In this document: positions 9,992 to 61,547 of the stretch, piece after piece
How the letters are laid out: the number at the start of each line of letters is the position of its first letter
Numbering within the stretch: the first letter of the stretch is position 1
Assembly: GCA_918797485.1 (NCBI GenBank)
Contig: CAKKNE010000005.1
Location: 1,736,001-1,800,000, forward strand
DNA length: 64,000 nt
Direction: 5' to 3'
Source: Pelagomonas calceolata
Lineage: Eukaryota
Made by a program: the position numbers and the translations under genes
Notes under the pieces: model-generated
What the model saw: only the letters and a program-made list of their open reading frames with translations
The model's database searches: none
Told to the model about the DNA's origin: nothing

Positions 9992-10068
9992 GTAGAGAGT
10001 GACGTGGCCTCCCCCGAGTAGAAATACCCCCCCCCCCGGCAGCGCTCGCACGCGAGCGACCTCACTGG

Positions 10069-10094
10069 TTAATTAATTAATTAATTAATTAATT
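10069..10094. repeat. (TTAA)n microsatellite
   Basis: Directly visible tandem TTAA run 3' of the dynein gene. Confidence 0.9.
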
Positions 10095-10587
10095 TAGGCG
10101 CCACGGCGAGTTGCCTAAATTTTTTGTGCGGTCGGCGCTTTTTTCTTCGTGGCACCCGCCTTTTAGGCCCTCTGGCGGCCAAAAGTAAATTTGGGGCGCC
10201 TCCCTGCCTGTTTGAGTGCGTTTTGGCCGACCACCGCCGGGGAGTGTCAGTCCCGTGCCCCTCGGGGCGCCTGCTACTACTGCTGCGGTAGTACATTTTT
10301 TACTTTATTTTGCTTTTAATGGCAGTTTCTGGGAACTACATCTTATTCTATCTATCTAACAAAGTGTATAGAACCAAGAATGTACCCTGCGCAGGCACCG
10401 TGACGCGTGCCACAGTGAGTCCCAGTCACTGGCACCTGGGGGGCGTGGATCCTGGGACACAGCGAGTCCAATGCACGGGTTGGTTCGACGCGTAGTGGAA
10501 CGACTAATATCCCCCCTCTTCTTTGTACCTCGTACCTTACTCATACACGTACTCATACACCCCGCCGGGCCTAGGACCTAGGTACTC

Positions 10588-10619
10588 CTAATGGATCTTT
10601 AACTTGAAAGATCCATTAG
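10588..10619. repeat. Perfect 13-bp inverted repeat with 6-nt spacer
   Basis: CTAATGGATCTTT-AACTTG-AAAGATCCATTAG. Confidence 0.9.
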
Positions 10620-10898
10620 TTAGGCTAGTAACTCAGGCTTCAGTGAGTGTAAGACGACCGGAGGCTGCCGGGGCTGGGGCGGCCCTAGAACTAGTAGATT
10701 AAGGCTACAAGAAGGCACAAGCTCCTAGGGGCCTTCTCTCTGCTCGGTCAGGATTGCCAACTGAAACTTCGAAATAAAGCGATAAATAAGGATATGAAGG
10801 GTTTCCTCAGTTGAATCAGTCGGGCTTTGCGCACAATCTGCACCCTTGGCTGATGTGACTGGCACGCACACATCAGGCAACAATACGTGGGGACTGCC

Positions 10899-12188
10899 CT
10901 ACATGCGAATCTGGAAACGCCCTGATTTCGTGATTGTCCGAACGCCCTTGTATGGCCGGTATCGTTCGTTTTTTAATTGTAGGGCTGCAATCTGTATACC
11001 AGAAACGGAGGCAACAGGGACCTTCCACTTGACCTGAATCGGAGGCGGGCCCTCAGCCAAACCTTGGATTATCATTGAGCCAGAAAGCTGGGGGACTTTG
11101 GTGGCATTTGGTGTGAGCCTTCCAATTGTCCAACTAGCCACCTTTGTGGCTTCGTCATAGAGCACTGTACCAACAGTTGCAGATAATGTGGCGGTCTTGA
11201 CACACTTGGGAAACGGGATCGATAATGCAACGTCCTCAATTAGCATCGGGGCTTTGCGATTGGGAGTCACGAGGGACGAAGTCTGCCTTTGACCAATCTG
11301 TATCTGTATGCGGCCATACCCAGCATTGTGCTGATCAGACATTGTTACAACAGGAGTAACGTATATCGGCACAGTCACATTTGTCTTCGTATTCACACGA
11401 TAGCGCATGAGCTCAAAAGTGCCATCAGGTGGCACGAAGCTCACAACGCGGTCCTGCTCGAATCTAGTATAGCGCACACAGGGGTGAAAGGAGCAGTCTT
11501 TTATTACCTCTGGATCTAGAAAGCTTAAGCATAGGTCTGGAATGCCAGAGAGACGCGAATTAGCTACAATAGCCCCAGATACCTCAGAGGATACTACTTG
11601 CCCTTTCCGATCTACAACTGCGTCAACTTCCTCAATAATATCCAGATAAATCTCGTTCTGAGCGTATTTGACCCCTGACTTACGCCAGGGCATGGAGGAA
11701 ATTGTCCCATCCGGAAGCACATCACTTACATTTGACTTCCCAGTTGCAACTGCTTGCAAGCGGCCCATGACAGAAGGAGGAGCGATCATTGCCTTCAATG
11801 CATTTGGTTCAGTTGTGAGCGGATTTCCGTTGTCCAACATCTCTTCGAGGAGCTGGTAAACACTAGCAAAATTGTCCTTGATTAAACCCTCGCTTGCGGC
11901 GCCGAAGTATTCAACAAATATGTCCACGACTCGCTGCAATAATTCAATTACTAGTAGCGGTGGCACCTCTTTGGCTAGAACAGCAATGACATATATGTCT
12001 TCTCTGAAGACAGACACTAAATAATGCTTGGAGGTGTGCAACAGTGGCGAGAGCGTTCCTGAGCGCTTGTCTTGTGGATTAAGTTCGTCCCAGCAAAGAT
12101 CACAAATGTTCCGTGGCGTGACACCACGCCAGTGTCGCTCAATTAAAACTTCGCCTGTCGCGCTTGTGACAAATAGAGAGTTTATCAT
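10899..12188 (-). CDS. AP3M: AP-3 adaptor complex mu subunit (intronless)
   Basis: MINSLF..GEVLIERHWR, IKDNF..VYQLLEEMLDNG.PLTTEPNALK, PWRKSGVKY..NEIYLD, SFHPCVR, YRPYKGVR.ITKSGRFQIR; start at 12188 chosen by similarity to AP3M N-termini. Confidence 0.93.
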   Translation of the reverse strand: MINSLFVTSATGEVLIERHWRGVTPRNICDLCWDELNPQDKRSGTLSPLLHTSKHYLVSVFREDIYVIAVLAKEVPPLLVIELLQRVVDIFVEYFGAASEGLIKDNFASVYQLLEEMLDNGNPLTTEPNALKAMIAPPSVMGRLQAVATGKSNVSDVLPDGTISSMPWRKSGVKYAQNEIYLDIIEEVDAVVDRKGQVVSSEVSGAIVANSRLSGIPDLCLSFLDPEVIKDCSFHPCVRYTRFEQDRVVSFVPPDGTFELMRYRVNTKTNVTVPIYVTPVVTMSDQHNAGYGRIQIQIGQRQTSSLVTPNRKAPMLIEDVALSIPFPKCVKTATLSATVGTVLYDEATKVASWTIGRLTPNATKVPQLSGSMIIQGLAEGPPPIQVKWKVPVASVSGIQIAALQLKNERYRPYKGVRTITKSGRFQIRM

Positions 12189-12799
12189 TTGGACCAGGGA
12201 TATTAAAGTTTGGAGCAGTAGCATGCTAGGCGAGGCTTGATCTCTCTCTCGGAACGGCTAGCCGAGTTTCGCGCGGATTTCTTTTTAGCGAGCCCTGCAT
12301 CGGGTCGGTTACGGCCCCGTGGAGGTGGTTTGGGACTGGGGGCGACCGCCTCAGGCTTTGATTTAGGGACTCGGACTCGGAATTTATTTTGTGACGAAAA
12401 ATGGCCTCGGGATGGGTAACGGTCAACGTAATCGACCCGAGGTGAGCCTTTGCCTCCCCTTACCCCGGGCAGCTCCCCTGACACCATGCGAAAGCTGCTG
12501 CAACTCAAACCCGCCGAGGTGGGGAGGGTGTGTGCGCGGCCCGGCGTCGGCTTGTGGGCTCGGGGTTCGTACGGGAACGAGAACTTGAACTTGCGCTATA
12601 CAGCTCCAGAGCTGAACGGAAGCCCCAAGGCCCTCATACATCAAAACTTTACGCTGTCGACGTAAAAACCCGCGAGCTCTGGAGGCTCGGGGCTCGATCG
12701 CCAGTGATTTATCTTTAGCTTTATTTTACTCTGCAGCCAAATGTGCTCGTCAGGTAAGCCAAAACAGCGTCTCCTCGTCGCGCGTTTCAAACGGACATT

Positions 12800-13200
12800 C
12801 ACGGGAAGATCTCCAAATTGCTGGTAGAGGAGCGCCCGACCCACGCGCACGGCGACGCACCTCAAGAAGTCCACCAGTTGTCCGTCGCCACATGTCAACC
12901 CGCGGTCGGTCGGGAGAGCATATTCGGTGATGTCATGGCGGGCTACTTGGACGCCGCTCGACAAAAGATCGCCCATCAGGACATACGTTTACATTCCAGC
13001 GAACGTTCGAATGACGCGCCGCGCAAGTGGAAAAGACTTTAAGCCGGCGACGACGACCCGCGGGGAATCGGACTCGTCCGAGAGCTTCGTTTAGGACGTT
13101 AGGCGTACTATCCTAGGACCTTTACGAATACCAGGACGGGCGGGGAGTTGGGGCCACTCTCTGGGCTCTGGTATGAAAGAAAACCCGCACCACCCCCATC
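12800..13200 (+). mobile_element. Internal fragment of TIR repeat family A
   Basis: GATCTCCAAATTGCTGGTAGAG...GGGAGAGCATATTCGGTGATGTC matches 36610-36740 and the reverse complement of 29075-29200; similarity to the 28.8-29.0 kb part continues to ~13200. Confidence 0.8.
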
Positions 13201-13433
13201 GTGCTTGCAACGAAGCTCGTGCAACGACATGTCCTCGGAAATGCAAACAGGGCTCCGTCGGACATCCCGGAGGCGAGACGGGCGCCGGGTCGCCCGAGGC
13301 CATCCGAGTCATCGCAAGTGCTGGTCGAAGTTAGGTGTTCTCGCTAGTAAGATTGAAGTTACTAGGGTTCAGACGGTTTACAGTCGTATCATAATAGCTT
13401 TATTTGGAAGCCGGTGACAAGTTGCCGCTCACG

Positions 13434-19400: not shown

Positions 19401-19915
19401 GAAAAGAATTACCTAAGAGAGCTGGCGGTGTGTAACTGTGCATCACGATAAAATCATACATATAGTAGCAAAGCAATGTCTTAGGAGAAGTTTCCACGAA
19501 TGACATCAGGGGGGAGCTCGAAGTTCTCAGGGCTCAAAACTTAGTATTGCGTAAAACACAGGGTGGGCACAGATCAGCTTTGTGTATATCTGCGCATCCC
19601 TATCAAAAGCTGCAGCACAAACCACCAAAGTCTTTAGTTCTGCACGATGTTAAATTAGGACGCTGTGATCCAACCACGCGTGCTGCGCTAATTGCAGCAC
19701 TAAGGCTAGAAAACCAAGATTTAAAGCTATGCATCGGAGAGAGAGAAGGAGAAATTGCAAGATTGAAACCTGAAAGGGCATGTTCCGATGTATACTATCA
19801 TTCGAAGAATAGATATGCAAAGACGGAACTAAAAACTCTGGTTGATGGACTACAGCTAGTGATGCAACGCCAGGGACTCCACATAAGAACGCTAAAAAGT
19901 TATGCTGGACTATAG
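13434..19915 (+). CDS. CEP290: CEP290-like long coiled-coil ciliary transition-zone protein, many small introns; 3' end uncertain
   Basis: Chain of short coiled-coil ORFs separated by ~45-55 bp GT-AG introns (e.g. 13736-13780); motifs EVNELQMKRRH..L.EE, RSRILYLELWKQG and ARSDNDRIIGKLQREI resemble CEP290. Confidence 0.6.
16093..16167 (+). repeat. Perfect 36-bp tandem duplication within the CEP290-like CDS
   Basis: TGGAAGTGGACAGGTGACTGTCACCAGGGATGACAT x2 (GSGQVTVTRDDI x2). Confidence 0.95.
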
Positions 19916-20048
19916 GTGATGATTGGGGCTGATGATTGGGAACTCGCAGGAACTAGTCCGAGCTTGATCAAGTATGTTTAGTGGTTCATCTTCTGATACG
20001 TTTCTTCAAAAACCATCTTATAGCAGTGAGGCCATCTTAGCCTAAGAA

Positions 20049-20141
20049 TCAGATACGGGGGGAGGGCTCTAGACTAAAGGCTTGGTGTATGTCCCTTTTA
20101 GAGTCCCCGGGCCTTTTTTAGGATATTCCTCCCTTACTAAT
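20049..20141 (-). repeat. Short dispersed repeat family B
   Basis: Reverse complement of GGAATATCCTAAAGGAAAGGACATACACCAAGCC, also seen at 29443-29476 and in part at 36384-36409. Confidence 0.65.
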
Positions 20142-20987
20142 TATCTGTCTATTAAGGGAGGGGTCGAGGCCCCGATTCAGCCGGGGGCTGTGGCGCCTCC
20201 CCATAAATAGCCTAAGGGAATCCTGAAACTTACTGCGAATAATCCTCGGGGCGTGCCCCACTGGCACACTGTCATTCTACCGGGCTCAGGCTGTGGACCC
20301 CTGAAAAAGCGACTTCAGGACTCGGAAGGGGCCCCACGCGAACGTCGCGTTAGTGGCGTTTCGTGCCGCATCAGGCCACTGTTTGGGTAATTCTACACTA
20401 AAAGCTGCCGTGTTTGCGCATCCAACCGACGCCACGGGTACCAAAGGGGGCTTCGGGGGAGAAATCACCAGAATAGAACCAATAACCTGCACGTTAAGCC
20501 GCACTCACGTCAGATCATTTTGTCCCTGGGGCCCAACAGCCCCCCCCCCAAGGGGCTATGATTGATTGAAAATCTCACCAATCACCATACCAGTCACGGT
20601 GATCTGGGGGCCGGCTTCCTTTTGTAAGCAAGCCTGAGGACTCCGAGTCCGAGTCGGAAGGAGTACCAGGCCTACCTAGCACTCGCTCGGTGGGCCCCTG
20701 GTCCGCCAACGGGGCGTAGGGAGAGGTGCGGTCCTACCGTGACTACTAGGCTAGTAATAACTTGAATCATGCCCGGGCCATGATCATGTGATGCCAGTGA
20801 TGTTCAAGTTTTATAGTCCGAGTCTCCACTGGCATCCCGGGCCGAGTCATTGCCAGTACGACCTGCCAGTGCAGGCGGCAATGGCGCTTCCCGGAGACAT
20901 CCAAGCCTCCGAAAAAACTCTCACACACACACGGATTGATTGGCGTCTGAATTCCACATCACCGTGATGTTAAAATTTTAATGAATC

Positions 20988-22514
20988 GTGTACTGGTACA
21001 TCATTTACCTGATACCTACGGTACTATGCATAGCTGGGTCAATGCGCGTTGCAATCATTCTGCCGTGGGTAGGCGGTGCAATGCCTCCCCATCTATCGTT
21101 TACATGCCATACCATGATTGGTGGTTTAGGGACAGCAACTTTGCTTTTGTTCCACGAGGTTACTCAAAAGCAGAGTGTGCCCGAGGCATGTCTCGCAAGG
21201 AGTAACATCGAGGTAAAGGAACTACAGGACGGAGGAATCGCAGCGCTTCACGTAAGGCGCATTGCAGAAGCAACTGGATCTCTGTCTCGAGTATGGAACG
21301 TCGATATGCAGCTGAAACTTGAGCGACTTTTGCAGATTGCACCTGCTCTCTTGTCTGAATTCAAACCAAGCTGGGGCTGGGTCTTTGGAGAATATCTCTA
21401 CGAGTACAGTCACTGGACCTATACCGATGTCGACATTGTGTTTGGGCGGCTTAACTCTGAGTCATATGCTGCTTTGATCTCAAATTTATGCCAGTCGCCA
21501 CAGGCTTGATGATTGGCTGGGGGGTGTTGAGTTCGACCGTTATGACATTCAAACATGGTCCTTCTTGGGCGACGCCGGCCGATTGTTCCTAAGGGGCCAG
21601 TGGGCTTTGCATAAAAATGAACAGCGCATAAACTTGCTGTGGCTAAACTGTGGCCATTTAAATGAAGATTTGCGTATCAATATTGAGGCGAAGCTACAAT
21701 TCTATCAAGATATGCTTGAATCGAAGAATTCGTCCTTGTTTGGTGTCAACAATTGAGCCTTCACAACTGCTAGTACATTAGGCATCGCTTGAAGCTGCTG
21801 TACCGCAAACGAATGACAACGGCTGCTCTGCCCCTAGATGAGTCTGGTTTGCATGAATGCAGTGTCCATACCGGAAGGTTTATCTCAGCCGAAGGCTGTT
21901 ACTCCTGTGTGGTAATTTCAAGCAGCCTTGCAGCAGCCCTTGATCTAAGAGTTAGAATTTCACCACTCGTGCTTAGTGATCACAGTGATGTTCCTGTCTT
22001 TTGGTTTCGTGGTAGCCTCGTGAGATGCATAAACCATTGGAACTCCAAAAGGGGCACATGTGGCGAGGCCTTGCGGGCCTGGAAGCATATACGGGCAAAT
22101 TATACTATGCGTGCATATCGAAGTCCAGAGACGCCAATCAACGCTGTGTTTAAGCGCGCAATTGTGATTCACGATTGCTTCAACATGCGCTGGATCTGCA
22201 GATCTGCGCGACGTGCAGCACTTCATGCCCTCGTTGACAAGTTAGAACTGGGTGGCCAGTTTGAACCTCTCGGACAAGAAAAAACTGTACTCCTTCGACC
22301 AGGGAAAGAGTTACTTCCCAAGGCGACCTTGGTGATGACGCCGATGATTAAACCCAGCGTCAGCATCCAAATAATTGAGGCGCCCCTCTTCCATTTTCGA
22401 AAATGGGTTGACTATGGAAGGTGGCATCCAACTTCCCTTGACAAAAATATGCCCCCAGTCATATTCTCAGTAAAGAGTAGCGGCTTTGTGTGCCTCCAAC
22501 GGCACCGTACCTAG
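20988..22514 (+). CDS. DUF6625-like putative glycosyltransferase, multi-exon; start uncertain (ATG 21042 or an upstream exon)
   Basis: MRVAIILPWVG and LSEFKPSWGWVFGEYLYEYSHWTYTDVDIVFGRL (DxD motif), LRGQWALHKN resemble DUF6625 proteins. Confidence 0.6.
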
Positions 22515-24266
22515 ACGTAGGCGGCTAGCTTGCCAGACGCAGCGATCTCCTTCATCCCTCATGGATATGAAATAGACTAGCAACCTGGGTCAGGGACGAG
22601 AAGGAAGAGCACTGGCTCTATAGCGAAGCACGATTGACTCGCTCTGAGTCACAAGCAGTCCGTCGACACTTGCTTACTGGCGGCAGGCTACTCACTGGTG
22701 AGTGGAGCGCAATGCTACATCGTGATGCCCTCCGCTCACGAAGCTACATTGGAGTGCATTTTTTACGATGGCCCCCAGCAGGCCCCGCCGCCCCTATCCA
22801 GGTCCCCGTCTCCTACCTCCGGGAAAGAGCTTAGAGCCCCTCCGCGTCGCGAATATCCTCCGACGAACTGGCAAGCACGTCGTAGATGTGCCATGCTTCG
22901 GCAATAGGGCACGTCAAGCCTGTGGGAGTCGTCGACCTTGTCGTATTTCGCAAACTTCTTTGTAGCGGACGAGCAGCAAACGAGCGGCCCTCTTGGCGAA
23001 GTGGACCAAGAAGCGGCGCATCCAATTAGAGTGGGTGCGAAGGTTTTAAGACTCCGAGTCGGACCAAATTAGACACCCGGAGACTGAAATCGTTGCCAAG
23101 GGCCAAGTGACTGGGTGGCCACGGGGGGTGTCGGGGTGTCACGGAACCCCAAATTTGCCGTATCTCCATAACTAGGCGTCTGGTGCGCAGGCAATTCGAG
23201 GATGGGGGCCTCCTTGCACCTCTGGGGGACATGACCGAAACAGGCGAGCGAAACGATTAGGTTTGGAAAGGAAATTTTAGTGGCCTGCGCACGTCGCGCC
23301 AGTCACTGTGGCGTTTCGTGCCGCGTCAGGCTACCTAGAAGGTTCGGGTTCGGGTTGCATGTCGGATTTTTGGAACTTTTGGGTGTTACCATGGCGGTTA
23401 TTGGTATGTTTCCGCTTAGGGGCTCTACATGCCAATCAAGCAACGCGAGATGAGTATTGAGATGGGCATCTAGTGCCCCCCGTAATAATATTATAATATG
23501 GTTTGGTTAGAGTCAGCCAGGCTATATCCATTTAGCAATTTGACTTCCCGGACTCGGAGGTCTAGCTAGCAAGACGCCAGCGGAGCAGACGAGACGAAGA
23601 GAGCAGAAAAAGGTATAGTTTAAACCACTTCGGGGTCACCTGCCCTGAGGGCAGCTAACCCTGTAGTGGTTCACACCTTTTCCCCTGCCGGGGGCTGCTC
23701 CGCAAGGGTGCCAACTCGGGCGTGGGGGCCTCAGGCTTCCGTGCGGGTTTAAGACTTTTCTATTATAAACCACTGATTTCGGGTAGCGTAAATTTTTTCG
23801 TCTTGGTGTCTTGGTGTCCGACCGGGGGGCGTTCCTGTGCCAATTTAACTATGCTTTGCTAAAAGATCTTACTGTCTTCCTGTCTTCCTGTCTCGTCGGA
23901 ATCCTCGGCCCTGGGGCCCCGGCCGCGATTTCGGCCTATGTTGCCGTCAATGACCCGCTCTTCCTGTCTTGATAGGAAGAGCAGCATCTTCCTGGCTAGA
24001 TCCAGGAAACAAATTCCCACCTTGCTATATCTCTCAACATCGACCACATCGGCCGCCCAGGTCATTCACTGGTAGGGGGTCGCGAGACTACAACCGCGTG
24101 AATGTAAGCCACAAAGCAATGCTGGATCACAAGAATTCAGTCTAGTAGCCCCAGCTGGTGCTCCTAGCCACACCGGACGCATTCTTATGTCCAAAAGCGG
24201 TAATTTGGTATGTAAGGTTGTGGGACTCAAAGCGCCAACTTTGTTCCATCCCTAAGTAATTGGCTA

Positions 24267-27200
24267 TTAAAGGGTGTGATTTGGATTCATTTGATACCTT
24301 CGGTATGCTGCATTCATGGCTGCCCGACGACGTTCATCCATTTGGGCTTGCTGTTGAGCTAGTGCTCTCAGCTGCTCCTTAAGCTGTCTGCATTTTGGTA
24401 CGACACAGGCCTCGCGACGGCACTGACGCGCATGTATCTGCAACAACGCCCAAATTCGACGGCAAATAGCGCAGCCACCCTGCACTCGTGTTGTACAATT
24501 TGCACCATGCTTTAACAAGTTCTGCGAGGACCGATCTAACAATATGAATGCCTGGCGTTCACGCACCTTCATCTTGTTGCAATTGGCAGAAGGACATTGT
24601 TGGTTTCTGCAGCCCGAGGCATGTTGAAGAAGCTGCATATGGAGCTGGATCGATCGATGGCGATCTCGGCGCTGCTCCTCCGTGAGCTGGGCCTGCGAAT
24701 CGCCGCCAACGATTGATCTCCTGAACGGAAACTTATCGGAAAACATTTTATGCATTTTTTTATAGCACTCCTGCAGGCTCAGGGTTCGCTTTACTCCGAA
24801 AAAATAGGGTTCGCACCTGGCACAGGTGAAAATCCGTGTCTTGTTCTGATGTGTAGCAACACCCTGAGTTAATATCAATGTTGCAATTCGAGCAGGTTAC
24901 GAGGAATTTAGGCACATCAGGGTTGTGTGTATGATACAAAGACATCATTGAAGTATGCTTGGCCCTCCTCAGGTCGTCAAATTGATAGTGATTACCCTGG
25001 CATAAATTCAGAAATTGCTGCCGTGTGTCATAAAATTCAGATTCAATAGTTTCATCCTTATCTTCGGTCTCATCAAAGTGTCGCTCTCTATTGATTCTCT
25101 GATCTCGAGCTTCAGGGTCGTTGATATTTGCTTTGGCGGCCGATTGACTTGTTTTGTCCACGCCTGGTGAATTAGGCTTTGTCTGCCCGACTCTGAGATT
25201 GGAAGGTGCCCTCTGTATTTCTGCACCATGCTGATTACTATTATTCAACTCCTTTTTGTGACGAATCCCCATTGCACATGCAAATATGCGTGGTTGCAGG
25301 TATGCAACAATAAAGGCATCTTTCATCGGCTCCAGGATTTTGCCCATCCGCACAATTAGTGAGTCCGTTCCAAGTTCTTCTTCCACTGACCCGTCTGACC
25401 GAAGGCCACGCTGTGCACGTGCCTTCGCTTTTTTCTTCGATTTAGATTCTAGTCGTTCATTGGCCTCGTCTGAAATTGCTTTGGCCACATTCTCCGCCTC
25501 GCCTGGCCAGTAATCACCCTCGAAGTATGGAATCTGGGTTATGTTAAAATCACTCTTGAAATTTTCATCCCAGAGGTTAGTTATGCGAGTAACGACACCT
25601 TCATCGCGCGCTTTTCTGAGTAACGTTATGTACCATAATCTAAGACGGTCGTCTTTGGGCGTCTTTTGGTCTTCAGGATGGCAGAAGAAAATATAATCGT
25701 CCCCCTTGCAAGGTGGGCAGGCCCAGATGTGGGCAGTATGAAAGCCACGCTCTTTTGCGTGCGCTAAGTATGCGATCAACATTTCGTGGTATACAAGAGT
25801 GCGGTTCTCTCTCGGGCGAAAATAGTAGACTGAATCAAGATAACTGACATAAACACGCCTGTTATTTGGCTGTGGACACTTGTGCCCATACTCATAGAGG
25901 TACATGCCAAATAGTATCACATCAACACCGTCCATTTCCTGGAAGAGAAGTACGCATTTTGACCGCATCGGAAATTCACATGGGTACTTGTGCTGTGAAT
26001 AACGCTTGAGAATTTTGGGCTTCACTTGATGCATTTTGTCGATATTTGAAAGCTGTCGAACATAAACAGGAGTTGGTTTGCTGGGTGAAGTCGTTGAGTT
26101 CCTTGTGTGAACATCTTGCAGTGATTTGATGACACGGTCTTCGAGAAAACGAGATAGTTTCGTGTGGCGAATATCTTTTGCGCCAAGTGGTCTCGGATGG
26201 GGGTCCTTTTTGCCACGCTGGGCCATAAAGCAAAAAGGACAATGATATATTGTCGTTCCCTTATTCATCCGACCATTAAACAAGGCGCATATTTGATGAA
26301 CCCACCGGTTGCACTGCGAGCACTCTACCCAGGGCTCTTCATGCATTTCATCATTTTTCTTTTTTTGCAAGTCCTTCTTCCACAATGTACAATCGGCAAA
26401 TTCAAGAGGCTGTTTGTCACGCAGCTCGTTGAAGCACTGTTGACACCAATGATACTGATTTCGACCCCCTGTATAATAATATGAGTTGCGTCGAATACGC
26501 TGTCCATTACAGGACCCGTTGCAGTAGTAAACTGTAGGCTCAAAAAGAAGTTTTTCGCAACCGCATAGGATGCATACGTCGCCATTCAGTTTTCTTTGTT
26601 TTTCTTCTGCTTCGATGGTTGCAATCATGACTTGGTAGAGCTTTTCAAAAGTTAGCTTCATTTCACGTGCTACTTTGCAAACATCTGAGCCATCTCCGTT
26701 GTATGTCACAGCATTATCAAAAGTGAGGCGCACATCAGCAGCAAAATCCAATATACTTTTGTAACAGTTATTCTCCATCCGCTTTTTTATTGAGCCGAGG
26801 TCCATTGGGGTTTTGACAACATCAAAATAGTCAGGAAGATTTAATTCAACTGGATCGACTGGTTGCATGAATATCCAGGAGCATTCGTGATCTGTTAATT
26901 TCTTGAGGACTGGTGCACATTTCTGACGTATCTTAGCAGAGCTCAATCGAAGTCCCATTTTTAGTGACTGAAGGTGTGCATGGACCTGCGTAGGTGTAAA
27001 CGAGTTCAAGAGGCTAGTGCCTTCTTCGATCCGACCAGCGGACGCTAAAGTGGTGTTATGTGCTGCATCTAGAGTCCGGTGGATATTGACATTGCCCACG
27101 ATTTTACTTGAGATTCCACTGATAACACGTGTTTTTTTTAAGTCGTGCGCACCAGAAGCACTACTGTATCTATTTCCGCTATGCGGTTGTAAATACTGGG

Positions 27201-41969: not shown

Positions 41970-42271
41970 GCTGATGTAATCTCCTGTGGTGACAGGCCTT
42001 TATCTCTAGTTCAGAGTACTATACGCGGCATGGAATAGCTCCCCTGGATCAACGAGAAAGTTAGCCAAGCTGCCTAGTGAAATGGAATTTTTAGCCTAGA
42101 GTCTCCTTACGCTTGATCCGCTCCCGTGACTGCCAGTGGGGGCAACTGTTTGGTCCGTGATTATGTACATCCATGATTACTGTTTGCCAGTGGGCCTGAG
42201 GCCGCCAGTAAGCCTCAGGGCGGCCAGGGAACGCCACCACGAACTATTGCCCCAGTTGGAGAGTCACCCTT

Positions 42272-42849
42272 GGGATTTTGTATACTTCATGTCCCATCCT
42301 GACGGATGATACGTATGATATTCAAATACCGATTTTTGAAATCCAATATAAAAATGACCATGACAAAAAAATCGCCAACTTGAAATATTTTTATCCGTTG
42401 GCGTTGATTGTCATCGGCGATGCCCGTCAGAACCCCGAAGAACTCCCAACGATTATCATTTGGGATTAGTGTGGGGGAGCACTTACCTAATGATATTAGG
42501 CCCGGGCCCGGGAAGTAGTATCGCAGACGATTCGAACTTGAAACGTATGAATTTCAAGTTAGTCCCCGGGCCCGGCCCCGGGGCCCCGCCTACGGCGTGG
42601 AACGAATTTCCTACATTTCGTGTGATGGAGATTGTTGTTCGGGGCACATATCATATACCGTGACCGTGACACTACCGTGTAAACGCAACGGACTTGGAAA
42701 ACTTGAAAATATTTTCAAGTTGGCTGCGGCCCGACGGGCAGCGGCGATTTCATCATGATGTCAATTTTTGATGACATATTTTGTACTATATTTTGTATTA
42801 GTTGGTAAAATAAGGGGGGATCCCAGTGGGACAAAGTATACAAAAACCC
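42272..42849. mobile_element. Foldback/MITE-like element (family C) with long imperfect inverted arms
   Basis: GGGATTTTGTATACTTCATGTCCCA vs TGGGACAAAGTATACAAAAACCC; inner inverted match GCCAACTTGAAATATTTT / AAAATATTTTCAAGTTGGC; GGG termini followed by TTA suggest PIF/Harbinger (inference). Confidence 0.75.
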
Positions 42850-43079
42850 TTAACTACTTTCCCGAGCCTGAGGTGTAATTCTGATATTCGATAAGTCACA
42901 GTTTTAAGACTGTTTGTTTTGTTTTTCGATCTAGCGCCTCGGTCGCCACCGGGGAAGCGCCGCGCTACGGTTCATTCAATTTCTTCGCATGTGGCGACTG
43001 TGGCGGCGTGCACAATTCCATACGTGCAACCTACGCATGGCACATGCGACCGCTGCGGCTGCCACGCGCGCGGAGAGTC

Positions 43080-43205
43080 CGCTCAAGTTGAAGTAAAGGT
43101 AGTCAGACTTCCACAAAATCACTCCTACTAGTACTTCTGCTGAGTTATTCCGGACGATTGTGGACGTCTATCCGGGAGCTCGAGTAGGTCCGTTCGGACG
43201 AAGTA
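43080..43205. mobile_element. Solo terminal fragment of TIR family A
   Basis: CTCAAGTTGAAGTAAAGGTAGTCA...GGACGTCTATCCGGGAGCTCGAGTAGGTCCG matches the reverse complement of 28590-28725. Confidence 0.8.
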
Positions 43206-43279
43206 GAATAGTTTAATTTGGCGGCGTCACGGCCAAGGCGTTATGAGTGCAATTGATACAAATTATGTCGAGTGATTGA

Positions 43280-48289: not shown

Positions 48290-49091
48290 TCGACCGCCCT
48301 ATATGCCCCGTGGCACACGTCTCCAGCCAAATACGCCTGGATCATGTTGCCCTGATCCCATCGAACCGGCCTGCATTTGATGCTCCTGCCCCTCTCGAGG
48401 TCTAGGGCGCTGACACTCACGACACTCACGAGCGTAACCATGCCGAGGTTTGTAGGATCTCCCAAGGAGTGGTTGGGGGGAGTGGTAGTGGGGTAACCCC
48501 CCCCTAGTAAGAGCCTAGTAGGGGGCGTAGTAGGGGGGTCGAGCCACAGCAGAGACAAGCCGCTGGTCGACTTGTGCGACTGTTACTTGTTCTAGTCCGT
48601 AGGATCGTCCTGTCGCGAGCTCCTGACGCGGCAAACTCGTCGAGTCGACGATACGCTGGTCGCGGTGGACCCGCGGTGCCTGCCGCGGGCAAAAAGGGGG
48701 GGTTAGTAAAGTGGAGCTAGTGGGATTTTTCTAACGCAATTTTCTCCCAGGGACCCCTGAAGAGGTGTGGTAGGTAGTGGCCTGCTGTCGGGGGTAGTCC
48801 CCGCCCTGCTGGAGCCTGAGCGTAACCCGTATGCGGAATACGCTCAGGTGCATGAATACGTCTGACGCATCCTCGCGACGTGCGGGGGAAGGATAATACC
48901 CTAGCGCAAACACATACATGTAATCTCCCTAGAGCTAGGCCGAGTAGAAAGTGGGGGCGCGAGAGCTCCGGGGGCGCGCGCAAAGACAACACGTAAAACC
49001 GGAATATATTATCCCCAGCGGCCGCAGACTAGATGCAAAGGACCCCGCAGCCGCACGCAAAGGCCACACGACGTCCGCAATCCGCATTAGT

Positions 49092-49122
49092 CCCTCCCTC
49101 CCTCCCTCCCTCCCTCCCTCCC
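49092..49122. repeat. (CCCT)n microsatellite
   Basis: Directly visible. Confidence 0.9.
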
Positions 49123-49451
49123 CCTGCCAGTGCCAGTGGATCCCATGCCACCCGCCTGCGGGTTTTTCCGGGATGCCAGCGGTAAAAGCCGAGCCGCCCT
49201 TCTTGTCTGTTGAGGGGGGAATGGCGGCGGAGGCCTCCGCAGGCGGGTGGTGCGATGCCTCAGAGGTCTATATAGTCGTTTTGTAGTCGGTGTAGTCTGA
49301 GACCGGCCCGGGAAATCGACGTATCTTTCCAAGCTGGATCAATCCCCAGAGTTCCTAGGAAATATCCATACCCGGGCCTGCAAAATTTCGGTACTTTCGG
49401 CGATACCACGCCCGGAATTGTATCCGAGGCTCCGTTTACGGTACTTGACCT

Positions 49452-50190
49452 AGCTCACTGGGCAACGGACCCTAGTAGGTTCGTTGTCGACGCTGGATTG
49501 GCTCAATTAATTAATGCCAAACGCACGTCCTTAAAATGAGTGCACTCGTATGGTGATACCGTGACCTGAAAAACCACAAGCAGCACGCAGCGAAAGAAGC
49601 TCGTGGTTTTTTAGGTGTAACCATACGAGTGCACTCATTTTAAGGACGTGGCAAACCGCCATATTTACTTCGAAAGCCCCCGCGCTCGTCGTGCTGCCCC
49701 GTATGGGGACACCCGCGCGGCTGCTGCCCCGCGACGTCAGGGACGAGCTGCGGTCGAAATTTGGGTGTCATCGACCGAATATTGAACGAATGGTGCGACC
49801 CATTCGTTTCGGCGGCTCGATTGAACGAATGGTTTACGACGAATTTTGGCTGCGGACGAGCTGACTGCTGATTATCGTACTCCCCGGCGACGCGCTGCGG
49901 ATTCCGGGGGCGCGGGCCGCACAGCAACCGGTATCGGGCGGGAAAAGGGCGGCGTCGAAAGGCTGCTGCTGGGGAGGGGGCCATATCTCGCCACGCCGAC
50001 GTCGGCGTGCAATGCACCCAGCGACACTCATGCACCCAGCGACACTCCGGGAGATCGCGCACGGGCGGGCCATTGTGTAAGTGGACTTTTTTGTGTACTC
50101 GACGATCTAGTGAGATAGAGGCAATTAAAGGCTGAGCTGTGGCCGAGGCGGGCAGCGAGCCGGATCGGGTCCGTTGCCCAGTAGGGCCTA
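49452..50190. mobile_element. TIR element (family D) containing a nested hairpin element
   Basis: Perfect 16-bp inverted match ACTGGGCAACGGACCC (49457-49472) / GGGTCCGTTGCCCAGT (50167-50182), weaker similarity over ~60 bp; exact ends unclear. Confidence 0.7.
49524..49650. mobile_element. 127-bp near-perfect palindromic MITE with CAC...GTG ends
   Basis: 31-bp perfect TIR CACGTCCTTAAAATGAGTGCACTCGTATGGT; flanks GCCAAACG / GCAAACCG may be a degenerate 8-bp TSD. Confidence 0.85.
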
Positions 50191-51019
50191 GTCATGGCCT
50201 GTTAACGGCCCCAGGATGTACTGGCCAGCGTGGGAAGGCCCAACGACTACGTATAGTAGCCCCCGGGCTGCCCGGCCCATGCCCCCCCTGACGGAAGTAG
50301 TCGGGAAGTAGCCGGACCCCGGATTTCGACCACTATCTCAGGCCACCCGGAGCCGCCCTTGTAGTCGGTAGAGGGGAGCCTGGGGAGGGTCTTGCAGGTG
50401 GGTGGTACCCCCACGCGGTCGACCGTTCTGCGTCATCATGATTGCAATTACTAGGTCACGGTTCGAACTTCGAATAGTAGCCTGAGTCACGGTCACGGCA
50501 TATCGTGATGCCAGTCACGGTGATAACTTGAATTCCATACCGGCGTGACTATTCAAAGTCGCAAACTATAGTACGGTGAATACCCTGTGCTCCCGCCCTG
50601 AACGGTCACGGTACGGTGCGGCCACCGTGACGGCCCGGGCCCGGGTGCTTTGCAAAAGTTCAATTTATTCAAAAGGTATAATCGCAAAAAATTGGTACTC
50701 CTCCTAAAATTACTGCGCGCGCGGGGTACCCCCTCGGGCCCCGGCCCCCGACGCGACGGCCCATTCAACTTGAACTTGAAGTGACCACTCTCCGGCCCGG
50801 GGTGTCCCCCGCCCCGGCCCGGGGCCCGGGCAGGCTGGAATAAAAACATTGAATTCCAACGGGCCTATCATCATAACGCTCTTGACCGCCCAGGCGTCCG
50901 AAATGAGCTACTAGTTTAAATTCTTCTGTGATCTAGGCTAGGTAGGATACTGCGGTAGTAAATATCAGTATCCGCTTCCTAAGCGTGCACCCAACGCATC
51001 CAGCGGACAGGACGCCGAT

Positions 51020-51796: not shown

Positions 51797-52466
51797 TGCA
51801 GAAAGGCACATTTAGCCCACGATGCGAAGGTCCAGGCGATTGATTCACAGCAGCGAGCGAGCTTAGTACTGGCCTGCACTACATCTACTTGAGCCTAGGC
51901 GTCCAAAAAGCGCCACATCCCTGGGGCAGTAGTAAGGACAAAACGCAAGATTAGTTCCCCGCCTATCGGCGAGGCTCGACGGCGAGGCACAAATTTCATA
52001 CATTTTGTTGGGTCAGAGCGCCGGCCCGGGCGAAGTCGCAACGGCAACTTAACTTGAACGCGAGCCCCACCGAACCGCGACTTGAACGTCGATTACTAAG
52101 TTTGAATGAGAGAATTCGATCCATTCTGCGATTTCAGGGCGAATGTGCGGGAAATCTTACCCTACCCGGTGACCCCGGGCCGGACTCCGAGCCTGAGTCC
52201 GCCGGCGAGTCGGACTCGCCGGAGGCTCAGGCTGCGGCCGGGCCAGTCACGGTGCCTCGGGTACGGGGGCACTCTCTCTCTCTTGGCCGCCTAGGACCCT
52301 CGCTACATTATACCGCGCTACGGCATTCTCTTGCTAGCCTCGATACGCGCTTGTAGCGTCCATAATTAAATAGATACATGGCGGTCTAGACTCGGAAGAT
52401 ATAGTACATGCTACATGCGCGTATCCGAAACCGGGCCGGTGCCGCAGGTGCGCCGCACGACCACAA

Positions 52467-54623: not shown

Positions 54624-55232
54624 TACTAGTAGTAGGCCGCGTGATTGTATCGAGCTAAGTCGAGTGATAAAGTCGACGCTCGCGAGTCGCCGCCTAAGCG
54701 CCTCAGTGGCACCCCAAATTGAACGCGAGAGAGAGAGAGACGAGAGGAGAGAGAGACGGAGAGAAACGGTTCAAAATACCCGCTCCGCCGTAGTCGCAAG
54801 GCGCGCTAAACCCGTAATCATCTATCAGGGGGGCATCCCTTTTCGAGAAGGAGGGAGGCCCATGCGACCACCTTACTCCGTCCTAGCCCGACGGATGGGC
54901 CCCGGAGGAGCGGGAGCGACTAGGGGGTCGCGCGCCGAACTACCCTTCTGTTAGCGTCGGGCCTCGGGCGCCGCGTCGACAGTCGTAGGCGTAGTCGGCG
55001 CGGCGCGGCTCGACGACGCGTCCACCAGTCGCACCACCTCTGGCGCAGAGTCCAGGGAGCTTTGGCGACTTGTATATTGCTCCGCTCCGGCGAATCATTT
55101 TCCAATAGCGAAGAGCTTCTATCCCTAGGCCTGTAAGACACTAGCACACCAATCGACGCAACAGGTCGGTTATCGCACTAATTATCGCCTGTACGGTTAT
55201 CGCCTGTAAGAGGCACTCCGACTGTAGAAACC

Positions 55233-57506: not shown

Positions 57507-57640
57507 CTTCTGCCACCCCCTACCCATAGTTCTAGATGCACTTACTAGTTGAGGGCCCCAACAATTATTCGGAAAGGAGAGCCCGTCGTTCAACGGTCGT
57601 TGCCGGGCGTTGCTAGCCTATAGATGGTGGTTGCTAGGGG

Positions 57641-58778
57641 CTAGGTCTGCCGCCGGCCCGTCGCGCGACATAAATGCAGCCCGGTGCCGCGCCACTCAGC
57701 GGGGACGGCCTCGGGCGCCGTGAACGCCACGCGGTCGAAGAGATTTTCCAGGTCGGCGAAGAACGGTGCTTCGCGCGCGTCCACGCGGCGCTTGTACGCG
57801 AGGTAGACGACGGTGCGCGCGTCCGATACCTCTCCCAGCGTTCGCAACAGGGCCGGGAGTGCCGCCACGTCGTAGAGGCAGTCGGCGGCGACGACGACGT
57901 CCCACGGCCCCGCGAGCGCCGCCGGCAGGGGGGCGCCCCACGCCAGCGGTTCCACGCGCAGGCCCGCCGCGGCGCCGACGTTCGCCGCCACGTTCGCGCG
58001 GGCGAGTTCGATCGCCGCCGGCAGGTCCGTCATCGCGACCTCGCGCGCGCCCCGCAGCCAGCACGCGGTGCCCACGAGTCCGGTACCTGTGCCCAACTCC
58101 AGAACTTTCCCTGCAAACCGCCCCTCCTCCCGCCATTCGGGCAGCCGCGGCCTGTGCAAAAATCAACCAGTGAGTCGGGTGTCTTTCTCGGCAAAAACGC
58201 GGCCGTGTTGGCCAAGTCACGCGGTCAAAGAGAACCACACCGCCACACCATCGAGCTTGCGCCGCGTCAATGGCGTGGAGGTCATGATTCAGCAGTGGCG
58301 GAGACGCGCTGCGAAAATTGGATTTATGCACTGGCCGTGGCAACATGAAAGTCAAGGCCCGGCCCGCATTCCACAGGACGCCTGCAATACCGCCTTCTGT
58401 CATCTGCTGCGCGAGACGCAGCGTCTGCTTTCGCGGCCTGCCGTGGATCTCGGGCAGCACGCCCACATCCGCGAGGACGAACGGTTCCCGGGCAGCAGTG
58501 AAGTCGACGCCTAGCCTGTATTGATAATTCTTAGGGTACCTGATTCCGCAATAATTCTTAGGATAACCTGACGCACTGGTCGATTTCCACGCAGGGTCGA
58601 ACGCGCCGCCGCTCTTCGACGCGGGCCGGGCGAACAGGTCTGCGGCGGTGAGACCGAAGGGCACTGGAACAACCGGCAGAGAGCGTCGTCGGGCGGATGC
58701 AAACCATTCGCGCAACTGCGCCTTTTTATCGTCAGCAAGCGCTGCCATCTGATCGAGGTAGCCCCGTACCAGTACCAT
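57641..58778 (-). CDS. METTL21-family (Methyltransf_16) lysine methyltransferase; introns 58152-58341 and 58516-58590 (or -58602)
   Basis: GIAGVLWNAG, KVLELGTGTGLVG, V.MTDLP, LAWG, DVVVAADCLY, LAYKRR; splicing restores FMLPRLPEW. Confidence 0.88.
58152..58341 (-). mobile_element. Introner-type intron with 8-bp TSD and TIR
   Basis: TSD GCCGCGGC (58144-58151) / GCCGTGGC (58334-58341); TIR CTGTGCAAAAATC ... GATTTATGCACTG; GC donor from the TSD, AG acceptor in the TIR. Confidence 0.9.
58516..58594 (-). mobile_element. Second introner-related intron in the methyltransferase gene
   Basis: End CTGCGTGGAAATCGACCAGTGCGTC resembles CTGTGCAAAAATCAACCAGTGAGTC of the neighbouring introner; internal ATAATTCTTAGG duplication; TSD not recognisable. 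Confidence 0.65.
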
Positions 58779-58789
58779 ATCAGCAGCGG

Positions 58790-59248
58790 ATATGTTCAGG
58801 GGGGGGGGGGGGGAAAGCGTACCATACACCACCCTGGAAACCGGAAATCTCCCAGGCAGATCTACCTACCTACCTTTCTCAGCCGGAAGTCGTCCAACGC
58901 GTCTCAAAAAGGGCGGAAATGATTAAACAACCCGTGGGAGGGCGCCCATTGGCTTTAATTGCTTTTAAAAGTAATTAATTTTTTAGCATTTTTAGCAAAA
59001 CACGAAAATAATTTCGACGTTCCAGGCGTCGCTTGTGGCGCCCCTACGACCCCAAACCTCCTCCATTCACTGGCGCATCACATCACACGTTCATGCGCGC
59101 TGCGCCATACCGCGGCGGTCAGCCGCGCGCGCGGAAACGCAAAGCCTCTATTGGTAAAAACAGAATCTCAGCAGTGACCTACCTACCTACCCCTCTAGTA
59201 GGTTCGGGGTGGTGTCTAGTACGCAAAATTTCCCCCCCCTTGGATATG
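58790..59248. mobile_element. MITE-like element with G-run TIRs
   Basis: Left (G)nAAAGCGTACCATACACCACCC vs right GGGTGGTGTCTAGTACGCAAAATTT(C)n; subterminal CTACCTACCTACC near both ends. Confidence 0.65.
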
Positions 59249-59260
59249 TTAGTTATTAAC

Positions 59261-59366
59261 GACGCTACGGACAATGCCGAGCAAAGGGCAGCTATTATCA
59301 CCAAGCTGGCCGACCACATGCGACGCTACGGAGAGCGCTGAGCAAAGGGCAGCTAGTATCACCAAT
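59261..59366 (+). repeat. Imperfect 61-bp tandem duplication
   Basis: GACGCTACGGA...GAGCAAAGGGCAGCTA(T/G)TATCACCAA twice. Confidence 0.8.
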
Positions 59367-59427
59367 CCCCCCTGACGAACACACAAAGTCCTTACTGAGG
59401 ACGCCGGGCGACACCGGAGAGGCCAAC

Positions 59428-61335
59428 ATGCTCTCGCTCGCCGGGCGACGGCCAGGTGCTCGTCTCTATGCGCGGGAGGACAAGCCCTCGCACCGCAGCA
59501 AGACGACAAGCCCGTCCTACCTCCGTCCCCTGCACCGCTCGTACCGCGTGGAGGCGCTGGGTCCAGACTCGATTAAACCTTTGGTCGAACTTGGGTTCTG
59601 GTCCAAGTCGGTTGAAGTGCGGCGGGACAGCGCCGCAGCCCTATCAACCTTAGCGCGGAATCCGGATAACCTCGGGACGCTAGGACGCTCGGGCGCCCTT
59701 GGCGCCACGCTGTCACTGCTGATTTCCACCGACGACGCCTGCGTGCGCGACGCGACGTTGACGTTGGGCCAACTCGTCCAGTGCGTGGAGCTGGCGGACC
59801 GCTTTATGGAGCGGACCGGGGGGCTCGAGACCGTGCTGGGCCTGCTGCGTTCGCCCGCGCCACGGCCCGCGCTGGTGGTGGTCGCGAATTTGGCGTGTCA
59901 GCGGGGCGCGGCCGACGCGATCGTCGCACGGGGCGGGCTCCGGCCGCTCGTCGCGCTCTTGCGCGCGCCGCGGCACGACATTCGCAACGAGGCGGCGGGC
60001 GTCGTCGCAGAGCTCGCGCGGCGCGCGCGCGACCGGACGGCGCTCGGCGCGGACGGCGCGGTCGTCCGGGCGGTGCTCGCCCTGCTCGCGGGAGAGTTCA
60101 CGGACCGCGAGGCGGCCGTCGAGGCCGCAGTCGTCGGGTTCGTCGCCGCGCTCGCGGCCGGGCCGGCCGCCGCGGCCGCACTCATCGAGCACGGCGGCGT
60201 GACCACGCTGTGCGCAAAGCTACGGGATCAGAGCCCGCCGCTCGAGATGGTCGCGAAACTGCTCCGAGCCATCCTGGCCCTCGCAGCGGCGCCCGCCGCG
60301 CGCGCGGCGCTGGTGGCCGCCGGCGCGCTCGACGCAGTCGCGGCCTGCGCATTTGCAGAACTCCCGGCCCGTTACGGCGTAGTGTCACTGTCGGTGCTTG
60401 GGCCAGTCGACGGTGCTGCGGGCGGCACGCCGGCGCCGCGCGGCGGGGGCGAGGGGGGCGGCGCGGGCGGCGCGGCCGCGCTCGCGGCCGCGCTCGCCGA
60501 CCCCCATGCTGCCCCGCGTCGTGTCGTCGTGACCGCAGTAGAAGTCGTCGACGCTCTCTCGCAGGACGCCGAGGGCGCCGCCGCGGTCGTCGACGCCAGA
60601 GTTCTCCCGCACGTCTTGCCGGTGGCAACGGTAACCTTTCGACGCGACAGACGTTTAGGCCGCGCGTCCGCGCATATCATCCGGCGCTGCGCGCTCGCCG
60701 CGCGCGACCAGCCATCCGAGGCTGCGTCGCGCCGCTTGGCGCATGCGCTCGCTTCCCAAGGAGCGATCGCTGCGCTGGGTCATCACTTGGGAAGCAGTGA
60801 TTTGGATTCGCAGTCGTCTTCGGCACACGCCTTGGCTGCCCTCAGCGACGCGCGCGACGTGACCGCCGCGTTGACGCGGCCGGCCGTCCTTACTTCATTG
60901 GTGGCGCTCCTTCACCTCCCGGAGCCCGAGGCGGCATGTCGGCTAATCGCATGCGTCGCCGACAAACCGCGCGCCGCGAGGGTTCTGCTGGACGGCGGCG
61001 CCGCGGCTTCGTTGTTGGGGTTGTTGGGGCCCGCCCTGGGCCGGAGCGCCCGCTACGCCGTGGACCTGCTTAACGCTGTACAACGGCTGCTCGAGGCCGC
61101 GACGCCTGCCGAGCGCGACGCCGCGGCCCGCCATGGTGGCCTTCGTGTCGTCCGCCGCGTGGCGAACACCGACCACCCGGCTAGGGCTGCGGCGAAGGGC
61201 GTTTTGCGAGCTCTCAAGGAGGAGGCGTCGCTATTGCTCGTGCAGCTGGCGATCCTCTCGTTCCTTAGACGCTTCCGCGACCCGGCGTGGCGGCGCAGGT
61301 TCCGCGCGCGGCAGAGGCCGAGAAGAGATGGATAA
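59428..61335 (+). CDS. Armadillo-repeat protein
   Basis: 635-aa ORF with repeated helical units (GALGATLSLL, GGLETVLGLL, GGLRPLVALL, GAIAALGHHL); GC3-rich coding pattern. Confidence 0.75.
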   Translation: MLSLAGRRPGARLYAREDKPSHRSKTTSPSYLRPLHRSYRVEALGPDSIKPLVELGFWSKSVEVRRDSAAALSTLARNPDNLGTLGRSGALGATLSLLISTDDACVRDATLTLGQLVQCVELADRFMERTGGLETVLGLLRSPAPRPALVVVANLACQRGAADAIVARGGLRPLVALLRAPRHDIRNEAAGVVAELARRARDRTALGADGAVVRAVLALLAGEFTDREAAVEAAVVGFVAALAAGPAAAAALIEHGGVTTLCAKLRDQSPPLEMVAKLLRAILALAAAPAARAALVAAGALDAVAACAFAELPARYGVVSLSVLGPVDGAAGGTPAPRGGGEGGGAGGAAALAAALADPHAAPRRVVVTAVEVVDALSQDAEGAAAVVDARVLPHVLPVATVTFRRDRRLGRASAHIIRRCALAARDQPSEAASRRLAHALASQGAIAALGHHLGSSDLDSQSSSAHALAALSDARDVTAALTRPAVLTSLVALLHLPEPEAACRLIACVADKPRAARVLLDGGAAASLLGLLGPALGRSARYAVDLLNAVQRLLEAATPAERDAAARHGGLRVVRRVANTDHPARAAAKGVLRALKEEASLLLVQLAILSFLRRFRDPAWRRRFRARQRPRRDG

Positions 61336-61547
61336 GTTGCACGTCGAGGACGCTCCCCATGTGTAACATCAGGAATCCTCGGCAGCGTCCTCCCTTGGCC
61401 GATAAGACCGCCGCCGATTAAAGCGGTCTGCCTCGGCCCTCGGACTCCAGGAGTTTATTTATTCCGAGTCAAGTTCACACTGACAACCAGAGAAGGTAAA
61501 AAGAAGCGGTCGTGTGATTGAAAAAGCGTAAACATACTACGGCGTTG

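Follow-up and report, generated by a model that had tools for sequence, protein, structure and literature searches.

Six-base-pair insertions that follow one rule in low-GC intergenic DNA of Pelagomonas calceolata, and their probable origin in transposon excision

The stretch analysed here, hereafter the window, comprises 64,000 nucleotides of Pelagomonas calceolata (assembly GCA_918797485.1, contig CAKKNE010000005.1, positions 1,736,001 to 1,800,000 of the forward strand). Its genes are eukaryotic, among them dynein heavy chain, AP-3 mu, a p300-like HAT, CFAP58, PIKfyve, EDC4 and VTC; AP-3 mu is ~80% identical to a cluster with Aureococcus anophagefferens and 76% to Pelagophyceae CCMP2097. 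The DNA between these genes is rich in 8-mers that obey the rule XY-C-rc(XY)-G-XY, where rc denotes the reverse complement, with 16 words in all, one per dinucleotide XY. We report that these rule words, also called scars below, arise de novo when 6 bp are inserted, which happens at nearly every kind of dinucleotide, and we weigh the proposal of an initial annotation that they are left by an excising transposon.

The GC content is 43-58% as far as 52 kb and 59-76% past 52 kb. The step near position ~52,400, from ~51% to ~69%, is sharp, scar density is lower beyond it, and it probably marks one limit of a centromeric low-GC trough. Such troughs in P. calceolata have 52% GC and span about 259 kb (PMC9481584, Supplementary Note 4), and the GC profile of the window fits the edge of one of them (PMC9481584).

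Rule words in non-coding DNA

The non-coding set of the window was masked by hand from positions 1-52,439 and amounts to 15,149 nt, and the low-GC genes form a second set of 37,290 nt. All 68 coordinates listed in the initial annotation bear the word assigned to them. The non-coding set contains 90 rule words, against 4.8, 5.5 and 6.4 expected under Markov models of order 1, 2 and 3 and 4.2-4.5 in dinucleotide shuffles; the gene set contains 9, with 8.9 expected. In a general scan of duplication-plus-inversion grammars, the arrangement with n=2 and C..G stands out (90 vs 4.2 in shuffles).

A replication sample was obtained by scanning metagenome contigs with a 22-mer of a repeat family, which yielded 49 loci (L001-L049) with ~219 kb of non-redundant DNA outside the window, or <1% of the 32-Mb genome. 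Given most of these loci have ~50% GC, and all but a few fragments are low-GC, the sample covers troughs rather than chromosome arms. Loci overlapping a same region were used as wild alleles. In 122,207 nt of non-redundant non-ORF (open reading frame) DNA from 48 of the 49 loci, the GC-rich L048 being excluded, 459 rule words were found against 36.6 expected. The ORFs of these loci hold 36 against 21.4, under a stop-to-stop mask that may include non-coding margins. The enrichment over Markov and shuffle controls is 12-16 fold.

The initial annotation had expected all 16 words to be enriched and control words not to be. In the larger sample every one of the 16 words exceeds its expectation, the weakest being CGCCGGCG (9 vs 3.6) and GCCGCGGC (16 vs 4.0); in the window alone three words are weak when taken singly, CGCCGGCG (1), GCCGCGGC (2) and TACTAGTA (1). 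As for the controls, 12 of the other 15 fixed-letter pairs yield 1-10 words in the window's non-coding set (expected 3-4), whereas G..C (25), C..C (16) and G..G (12) are raised over an expected 5.5. The rise of G..C is due to its being a shifted frame of tandem scars. At 52.4-64 kb, CGCCGGCG and GCCGCGGC occur 13 times each, against 7-8 expected at order 3-4, and this excess is an effect of GC composition.

The 12 words with non-palindromic XY account for 83 of the 90 words in the window, and palindromic XY for 7. A general depletion of palindromic XY was considered and fails in the larger sample, where CG and GC are depleted and TA (30) and AT (22) are not.

Insertion as the origin of the words

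The wild alleles differ by 158 distinct indels whose 12-column flanks are clean: 46 of 1 bp, 18, 11, 6 and 4 of 2, 3, 4 and 5 bp, 25 of 6 bp and none of 7 or 8 bp. Only the 1-bp class is larger than the 6-bp class. The spike at 6 bp foreseen in the initial annotation is therefore present, and 24 of the 25 indels that form it turn a plain XY into a rule word. Three of these 24 would also pass for tandem duplications, and the remaining 21 cannot be tandem slippage. The lone exception lies in a CC/GG scar cluster at 42565. Comparisons between repeat copies gave 259 indels, in which 20 of 27 six-bp events follow the rule, some rows being the same event viewed via different copies. Indels of 12 and 18 bp decompose into nested or chained scars.

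Within the window, repeat alignments show a rule word as a clean +6 at 43126, 36533 and 49558, the last against the opposite arm of a terminal inverted repeat (TIR). The polarity is insertion at the testable sites 36533, 43126 and 49305. The scar at 36533, present in all alleles of its locus and in no paralog alignment, is hence a derived insertion. These alignments bear out the claim that the words arise by 6-bp insertion and not by substitution, composition or the spread of one repeat family.

Ten allele pairs, two of which share L015, differ by 21 scars per 446 non-coding single-nucleotide polymorphisms (SNPs) and 162 non-coding indels. This corresponds to about one scar for every 21 substitutions in non-coding DNA, and about 13% of the non-coding indels (21/162) are rule scars. 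In the ORFs of the same pairs, no scar accompanies 159 SNPs, and the 35 kb of aligned ORF holds no polymorphic scar; the frame preservation that the initial annotation attached to a +6 event thus seems irrelevant. The pair L015/L039, 99.9% identical, differs by three scars and nine non-coding SNPs, which indicates that scar formation has been active very recently.

Scars cluster in 100-300 bp intergenic hot spots of low-GC centromere-type DNA (Table 1). The hot spots are probably stretches of open chromatin where the DNA does not recombine and selection is weak. Nested scars (48 vs 12) and tandem scars (23 vs 3.8) exceed a uniform null. The idea that scars attract new scars was rejected: 7 of 26 polymorphic scars lie within 3 nt of an older one, with 5.2-6.9 expected from local density, and new scars are no closer to old ones than that density predicts. 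The clustering is one of regional hot spots. Scar spacing showed no clear nucleosome periodicity.

The high-GC end of the window has two rule words (54624 and 61463) in ~1.85 kb of intergenic DNA, where the density of the trough would predict 6.8-11 (P 0.03-0.001). Given this drop, and given nearly all fetched loci are low-GC, the claim that the pattern is genome-wide is not established. Of the two settings named in the initial annotation, intergenic and intron DNA, the first stands, and for the second there is a single probable case, at 6365. About 1.9 excess scars per kb, if extrapolated to six troughs, would give roughly 3,000 scars per genome.

Table 1. Spacers, hot spots and single sites with rule words in the window
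Feature	Positions	Content
ACCGTGAC in probable dynein intron	6365..6372	Intron inferred from GTGAG donor at 6317 and ORF break
Spacer, dynein heavy chain/AP-3 mu	9992..10898	4 rule words: 10397, 10427, 10601, 10632
Spacer	12190..13429	5 rule words, including tandem scar 12368/12374
Hot spot upstream of DUF6625 gene	19916..20984	17 words, 15.9/kb, densest at 20593-20871
CCCGGGCC scar	20106..20113	Present in window; allele L005 lacks it (-6, plain CC)
Empty site	20160..20165	Unoccupied in window; allele L005 has GTCACGGT (+6)
Spacer	22515..24266	3 rule words
Spacer	27935..30519	4 rule words and full-length family-A repeat 28585-29419
Spacer	33199..34491	9 rule words
GTCACGGT scar in family-A copy	36533..36540	In 4/4 alleles of the locus; absent in 20/20 paralog alignments (16 exactly -6)
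Hot spot between convergent genes	41970..43279	16 rule words
Empty site	near 42604	Alleles L013, L019 and L043 carry AACTTGAA
TACTAGTA scar	43126..43133	Clean +6 vs paralogous repeat copies (9/9 alignments -6)
Spacer	48299..50941	22 rule words; hot spot 50435-50830
Scars 49305 GGCCCGGG and 49371 CCCGGGCC	49305..49378	In multi-copy repeat; both absent (-6) in contigs of 4/4 runs
ACCGTGAC scar	49558..49565	127-bp CAC...GTG inverted-repeat element has it in one arm and lacks it in the other
Hot spot at low-GC/high-GC boundary	51797..52439	8 rule words
TACTAGTA	54624..54631	Just after stop codon, high-GC part
TCCGAGTC	61463..61470	Spacer of high-GC part

Transposon excision and its alternatives

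Given the inner two letters of a scar are the reverse complement of its target, a strand must have folded back and served as its own template, much as a flank hairpin does. Around 310 isolated scars the flanking bases stay close to background (0.33 vs 0.26 for C at -1), and a C before together with a G after is found in 71 of 594 scars (12% vs about 7%), the pair being incomplete in 523. Hence, the central C and G are not supplied by the target. Alternative junctions gave, as observed and expected counts, 270 and 274 for +4 XY-CG-XY, which lacks the inversion, 3 and 1.1 for +8, which would need no microhomology, 8 and 14.8 for T..A centres, and 21 and 14.8 for A..T centres, while XY-rc(XY)-XY, which has no extra base, is barely over background (296 vs 241 expected). 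Three non-tandem allelic indels are +3 events of the form XY-S-XY, all at palindromic XY (TA or GC), and +3 events make up 3 of 6 events at palindromic XY and 0 of 21 elsewhere (Fisher P=0.007). Two clear +5 events occur at GG in repeat copies. A 5-mer test of +3 words in the larger sample raised A/T-centred controls as well, hence it does not discriminate. The products fit a pair of 5-nt overhangs that stem from hairpins, each with a fixed C at its centre, and that are joined through 2 nt of microhomology. The side products on which this partly rests are few.

The rule words are probably the excision scars of a cut-and-paste transposon with C...G ends and a 2-bp target-site duplication (TSD), a CACTA/Mirage/Plavaka-like donor deduced from what it would leave behind. 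Insertion would produce XY[C...G]XY. On excision, the non-transferred strand would be nicked one base inside the element, so that the terminal C stays on each flank, and the 3'-OH would seal a flank hairpin XY-C-rc(XY). A host nuclease would open the hairpins at least two bases past the tip, giving the 3' overhangs XYC-rc(XY) and rc(XY)-C-XY, whose annealing via rc(XY)/XY and fill-in would yield XY-C-rc(XY)-G-XY in almost all events. The near-uniform product would follow from rc(XY)/XY being the sole microhomology that all targets share. A C that is built into both flanks would most simply come from the first base of a C...G element nicked one base inside. With a self-complementary XY, the full 5-nt overhangs could anneal with a C:C mismatch in the middle, which would leave +3 (XY-C/G-XY), and at GG or CC targets a one-base slip could give +5. 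A covalent flank-hairpin intermediate is thus suggested by the scar geometry and by the +3 and +5 side products.

Flank hairpins with P-nucleotides and microhomology joins are described for Ac/Ds, whose excision footprints are covered in plants, S. cerevisiae and C. albicans (PMC5873905), and for hAT, Transib, RAG and MULE elements (PMC5499845). The scars work like an Ac/Ds-type hairpin footprint, with short inverted flank copies around one central base and a microhomology join after hairpin opening (PMC5873905), differ from it in centre and TSD, and are probably a new form of transposon excision footprint. In Ac/Ds the centre is the complement of a flank base and variable, whereas here it is always C/G; Ac/Ds footprints are also heterogeneous (28 types in 128 clones), whereas one product accounts for 24 of 25 events here (PMC5873905). 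The hAT TSD is usually 8 bp (PMC12730594), against a 2-bp duplication here. Compared with a hAT footprint, the inverted flank copy and the microhomology are found, and the complement centre and a TSD of 5-8 bp are not.

Set beside known elements, the proposed donor resembles those of the CMCT clade (EnSpm/CACTA, Mirage, Chapaev, Transib, Plavaka): these elements mostly have CA..TG ends and 2-5 bp TSDs, PlavakaB has a TSD of 2-3 bp, and flank hairpins have been shown for Transib (PMC12730594). The scars present the 2-bp duplication of unconstrained sequence expected of such a donor, with every XY used and flanks near background, and the small insertion at a plain site with target duplication that marks DDE excision. 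Neither an element of this kind nor a DDE transposase with the C(2)C and H(3-4)H motifs of the clade turned up in the loci, the 210 scanned ORFs or the gene-table entries listed, and the literature searched held no footprint that keeps a terminal C. A RAG/Transib border nick would add no extra base, and neither that product in appreciable excess (the 296 vs 241 above) nor a 5-bp TSD is seen. The proposed flank hairpin chemistry is nonetheless that of RAG/Transib and AanRAGL (PMC9435367, PMC5499845), the latter an active RAG-like transposon with a 5-bp TSD in the pelagophyte Aureococcus (PMC9435367). Pelagophyte introners are abundant non-autonomous TIR elements of this lineage, with 956 putative ones in P. 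calceolata, yet they are reported to have an 8-bp TSD in Aureococcus sp. and lie in genes, whereas the scars are intergenic (PMC9481584; 10.1101/2022.06.06.494994). The grammar is not described in the literature searched, which also held no DNA-transposon TIR work naming Pelagomonas and left most subscription journals and Repbase uncovered.

Several results weigh against the excision reading. None of the 47 larger allelic indels is a polymorphic C...G element flanked by a 2-bp TSD. TIR scans over 512 kb (~270 kb non-redundant) gave chance-level numbers, similar for the four terminal letters among the matches listed. Pfam scans of 140+70 ORFs found no CACTA, Transib, Plavaka or hAT domain, only piggyBac fragments in L007, and PF02992, PF18758, PF18759, PF18803 and PF05699 are absent among the listed entries of the published P. 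calceolata gene table, which derives from a repeat-masked genome. The +3 events AT-A-AT, AT-T-AT, GT-C-GT and GG-A-GG do not conform; one '+5' allelic event is an A-run artefact; and the expected deficit of palindromic targets holds for half of them in the larger sample (CG and GC, not TA at 30 or AT at 22). Finally, none of the three cleavage pathways set out in PMC5499845 pairs an inside nick with a flank hairpin.

The sole tidy candidate donor, a 103-bp C...G inverted repeat (arms 14/14) with TG/TG flanks at 49148-49250, is ambiguous, and lacks an empty or scar allele in the compared contigs, which counts on the same side. The 49 loci contain no second copy, its left arm is similar to how the neighbouring repeat ordinarily reads in loose ends, and a microsatellite just to its left breaks contigs, so its role as donor is doubtful. 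No occupied allele was seen at scar sites, either in the 47 larger indels or in contigs of seven runs over two stretches, and allele breakpoints and repeat-family ends revealed no C...G donor. Elements of the form CAC...GTG are present without a matching TSD, and viral-contig scans with a family-A pattern (see below) and the 49148 TIR pair gave 0 matches. Given the sample is <1% of the genome and the gene-table entries listed come from a repeat-masked genome, the absence of a donor is weak evidence. Of the mechanism put forward in the initial annotation, insertion at any XY is confirmed and the geometry is supported by reasoning from the products, and the C...G element, its transposase and a trio of empty, occupied and scar alleles were not found in these searches.

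The missing donor and transposase would suit a host enzyme that acts without any mobile element, either a Spo11/topoisomerase-VI-like cutter with a 2-nt stagger or a domesticated transposase, followed by fill-in, addition of an untemplated C and hairpins repaired likewise. The stagger of Spo11 is 2 nt, which would match the 2-bp duplication in the scar, and the target preference is almost nil. P. calceolata does have Spo11 (PMC9481584). However, the same untemplated C would be required on both ends always, and variants with A, T or no addition are at background; moreover, scars are densest in the low-GC trough, where meiotic breaks are argued to be suppressed (PMC9481584, Supplementary Note 4). 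Such an enzyme is unlikely to be the cause. Slightly less likely still is another end geometry, i.e., a G...C-ended transposon attacked one base inside, with the centre being the complement of its terminal G, or a hAT-type nick at CNNG. Ac/Ds palindromes do centre on the complement of the base beside the element (PMC5873905), Transib relatives starting with G and having 2-3 bp TSDs are reported (10.64898/2026.08.26.747230), a GGG...CCC element with TT/TT flanks lies at 42272-42849, and C/G scar flanks are mildly enriched (12% vs about 7%). Yet a G...C element would lose one base per end in each cycle unless a 5' flap were kept, and other copies of the GGG family are preceded by TA and have ends not cleanly defined. 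The CNNG version needs C and G flanks at every scar; as these occur in only 71 of 594 and 523 are without them, hAT chemistry on such a target is excluded.

Canonical Tc1/mariner footprints are TA-CAG/CTG-TA and TA-CATG-TA. They resemble the scars in that terminal bases of the element are left behind with a 2-bp duplication as a stereotyped +5/+6, but they use a TA target only, their inner bases are fixed by the element, and they have no inverted copy of the target, whereas all 16 XY are used here. An origin in several such families, each with its own terminal bases, could draw on family A, whose ends TA|CT...AG|TA could yield TACTAGTA directly, on a Tc1-like gene annotated in P. calceolata and on existing TA-CTG-TA +5 indels. 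Fixed ends, however, cannot give target-dependent inner letters, and symmetric inverted ends cannot produce those of the 12 non-palindromic XY, to which 83 of the 90 window words belong, as do 24 of 26 polymorphic scars. As a general cause these footprints are therefore refuted; they explain at most part of the TACTAGTA count and are highly improbable beyond it. Least probable of all are selected regulatory or centromere motifs, slippage or base composition. The words do cluster between genes in centromere-type DNA, and 3 of 24 rule indels are also tandem duplications, but sixteen unrelated words under one relational rule, new insertions in repeats and allelic differences argue otherwise, and Markov and shuffle controls fall short 12-16 fold. 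Such an origin is refuted, although later co-option of some scars is not excluded.

If the words are indeed transposon excision scars, the invariant C/G predicts a cleavage position outside the described pathways, and the target to seek is XY[C...G]XY. It is possible, and proposed tentatively, that the transposase cuts one base within its own terminus, as Tc1 does, but seals the flank into a hairpin, as hAT and RAG do, and operates today through a single repair route, leaving a self-decoding 6-bp record per visit (~1 per 20 substitutions); the element would almost never be kept, and centromeric spacer DNA would be substantially scar-built. This would be new transposase chemistry in one of the ocean's most abundant picoeukaryotes, whose genome is reported to be repeat-poor (about 6-8%), without transposon build-up at centromeres. 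A scar that a script can recognise and undo would give a dated map of transposon visits, and polymorphic scars would be near homoplasy-free markers for haplotypes of wild populations within non-recombining regions.

Neighbouring repeats and further observations

Repeat family A, about 830 bp with imperfect TIRs and the ends TA|CT...AG|TA, has copies in the window at 28585-29419, 12807-13204, 36415-37004 and 43103-43216 and occurs at many loci. The non-redundant set yields up to 16 overlapping matches, each of them in a low-GC stretch. In L007, family-A sequence runs into C-terminal fragments of a piggyBac-like transposase (PF13843). L041 carries, at 2918-4760 inside a family-A copy, a 1.84-kb insertion with G-run...C-run TIRs and a 161-aa ORF without a Pfam match.

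A ~730-bp TIR element with a CCTAG/CTAG duplication lies at window positions 49440-50186, is absent from contigs of three of four runs, and has the 127-bp CAC...GTG element nested in it at 49524-49650. The repeat family bounded by CTAGGTTG...CAACCTAG (L015 19415-19705, L041 6736-7121, L022 15913-16310 and window 36216) is apparently another TIR family with a CTAG target. The GGG...CCC inverted-repeat element with TT/TT flanks is rich in rule scars, lies in the window at 42272-42849 and 36246-36317, and has related fragments in L015, L037 and L039.

A further over-represented word class in the non-ORF DNA of L001-L049 consists of TA-CCG/CGG-TA and TA-CC/GG-TA chains (in the window at 21017, 28544 and 34387). 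TACCGTA occurs 55 times against 10 expected, and the class resembles Tc1/mariner-type footprints. Two TA-CTG-TA +5 indels were found in repeats.

When window positions 36226-36346 are compared with L013 10389-11005 and with L019, unrelated segments of 0.6-1.2 kb replace the spacer in wild alleles, which indicates that trough spacers turn over structurally. The p300-like HAT and nucleoside-hydrolase-like genes (24267-27934 and 30520-33198) have paralogs of 69-75% identity in the low-GC loci L031 and L028. Lastly, a short motif common to dynein introns (repeat D20), at window positions 91, 7233, 8247 and 9386, is possibly an old introner family.

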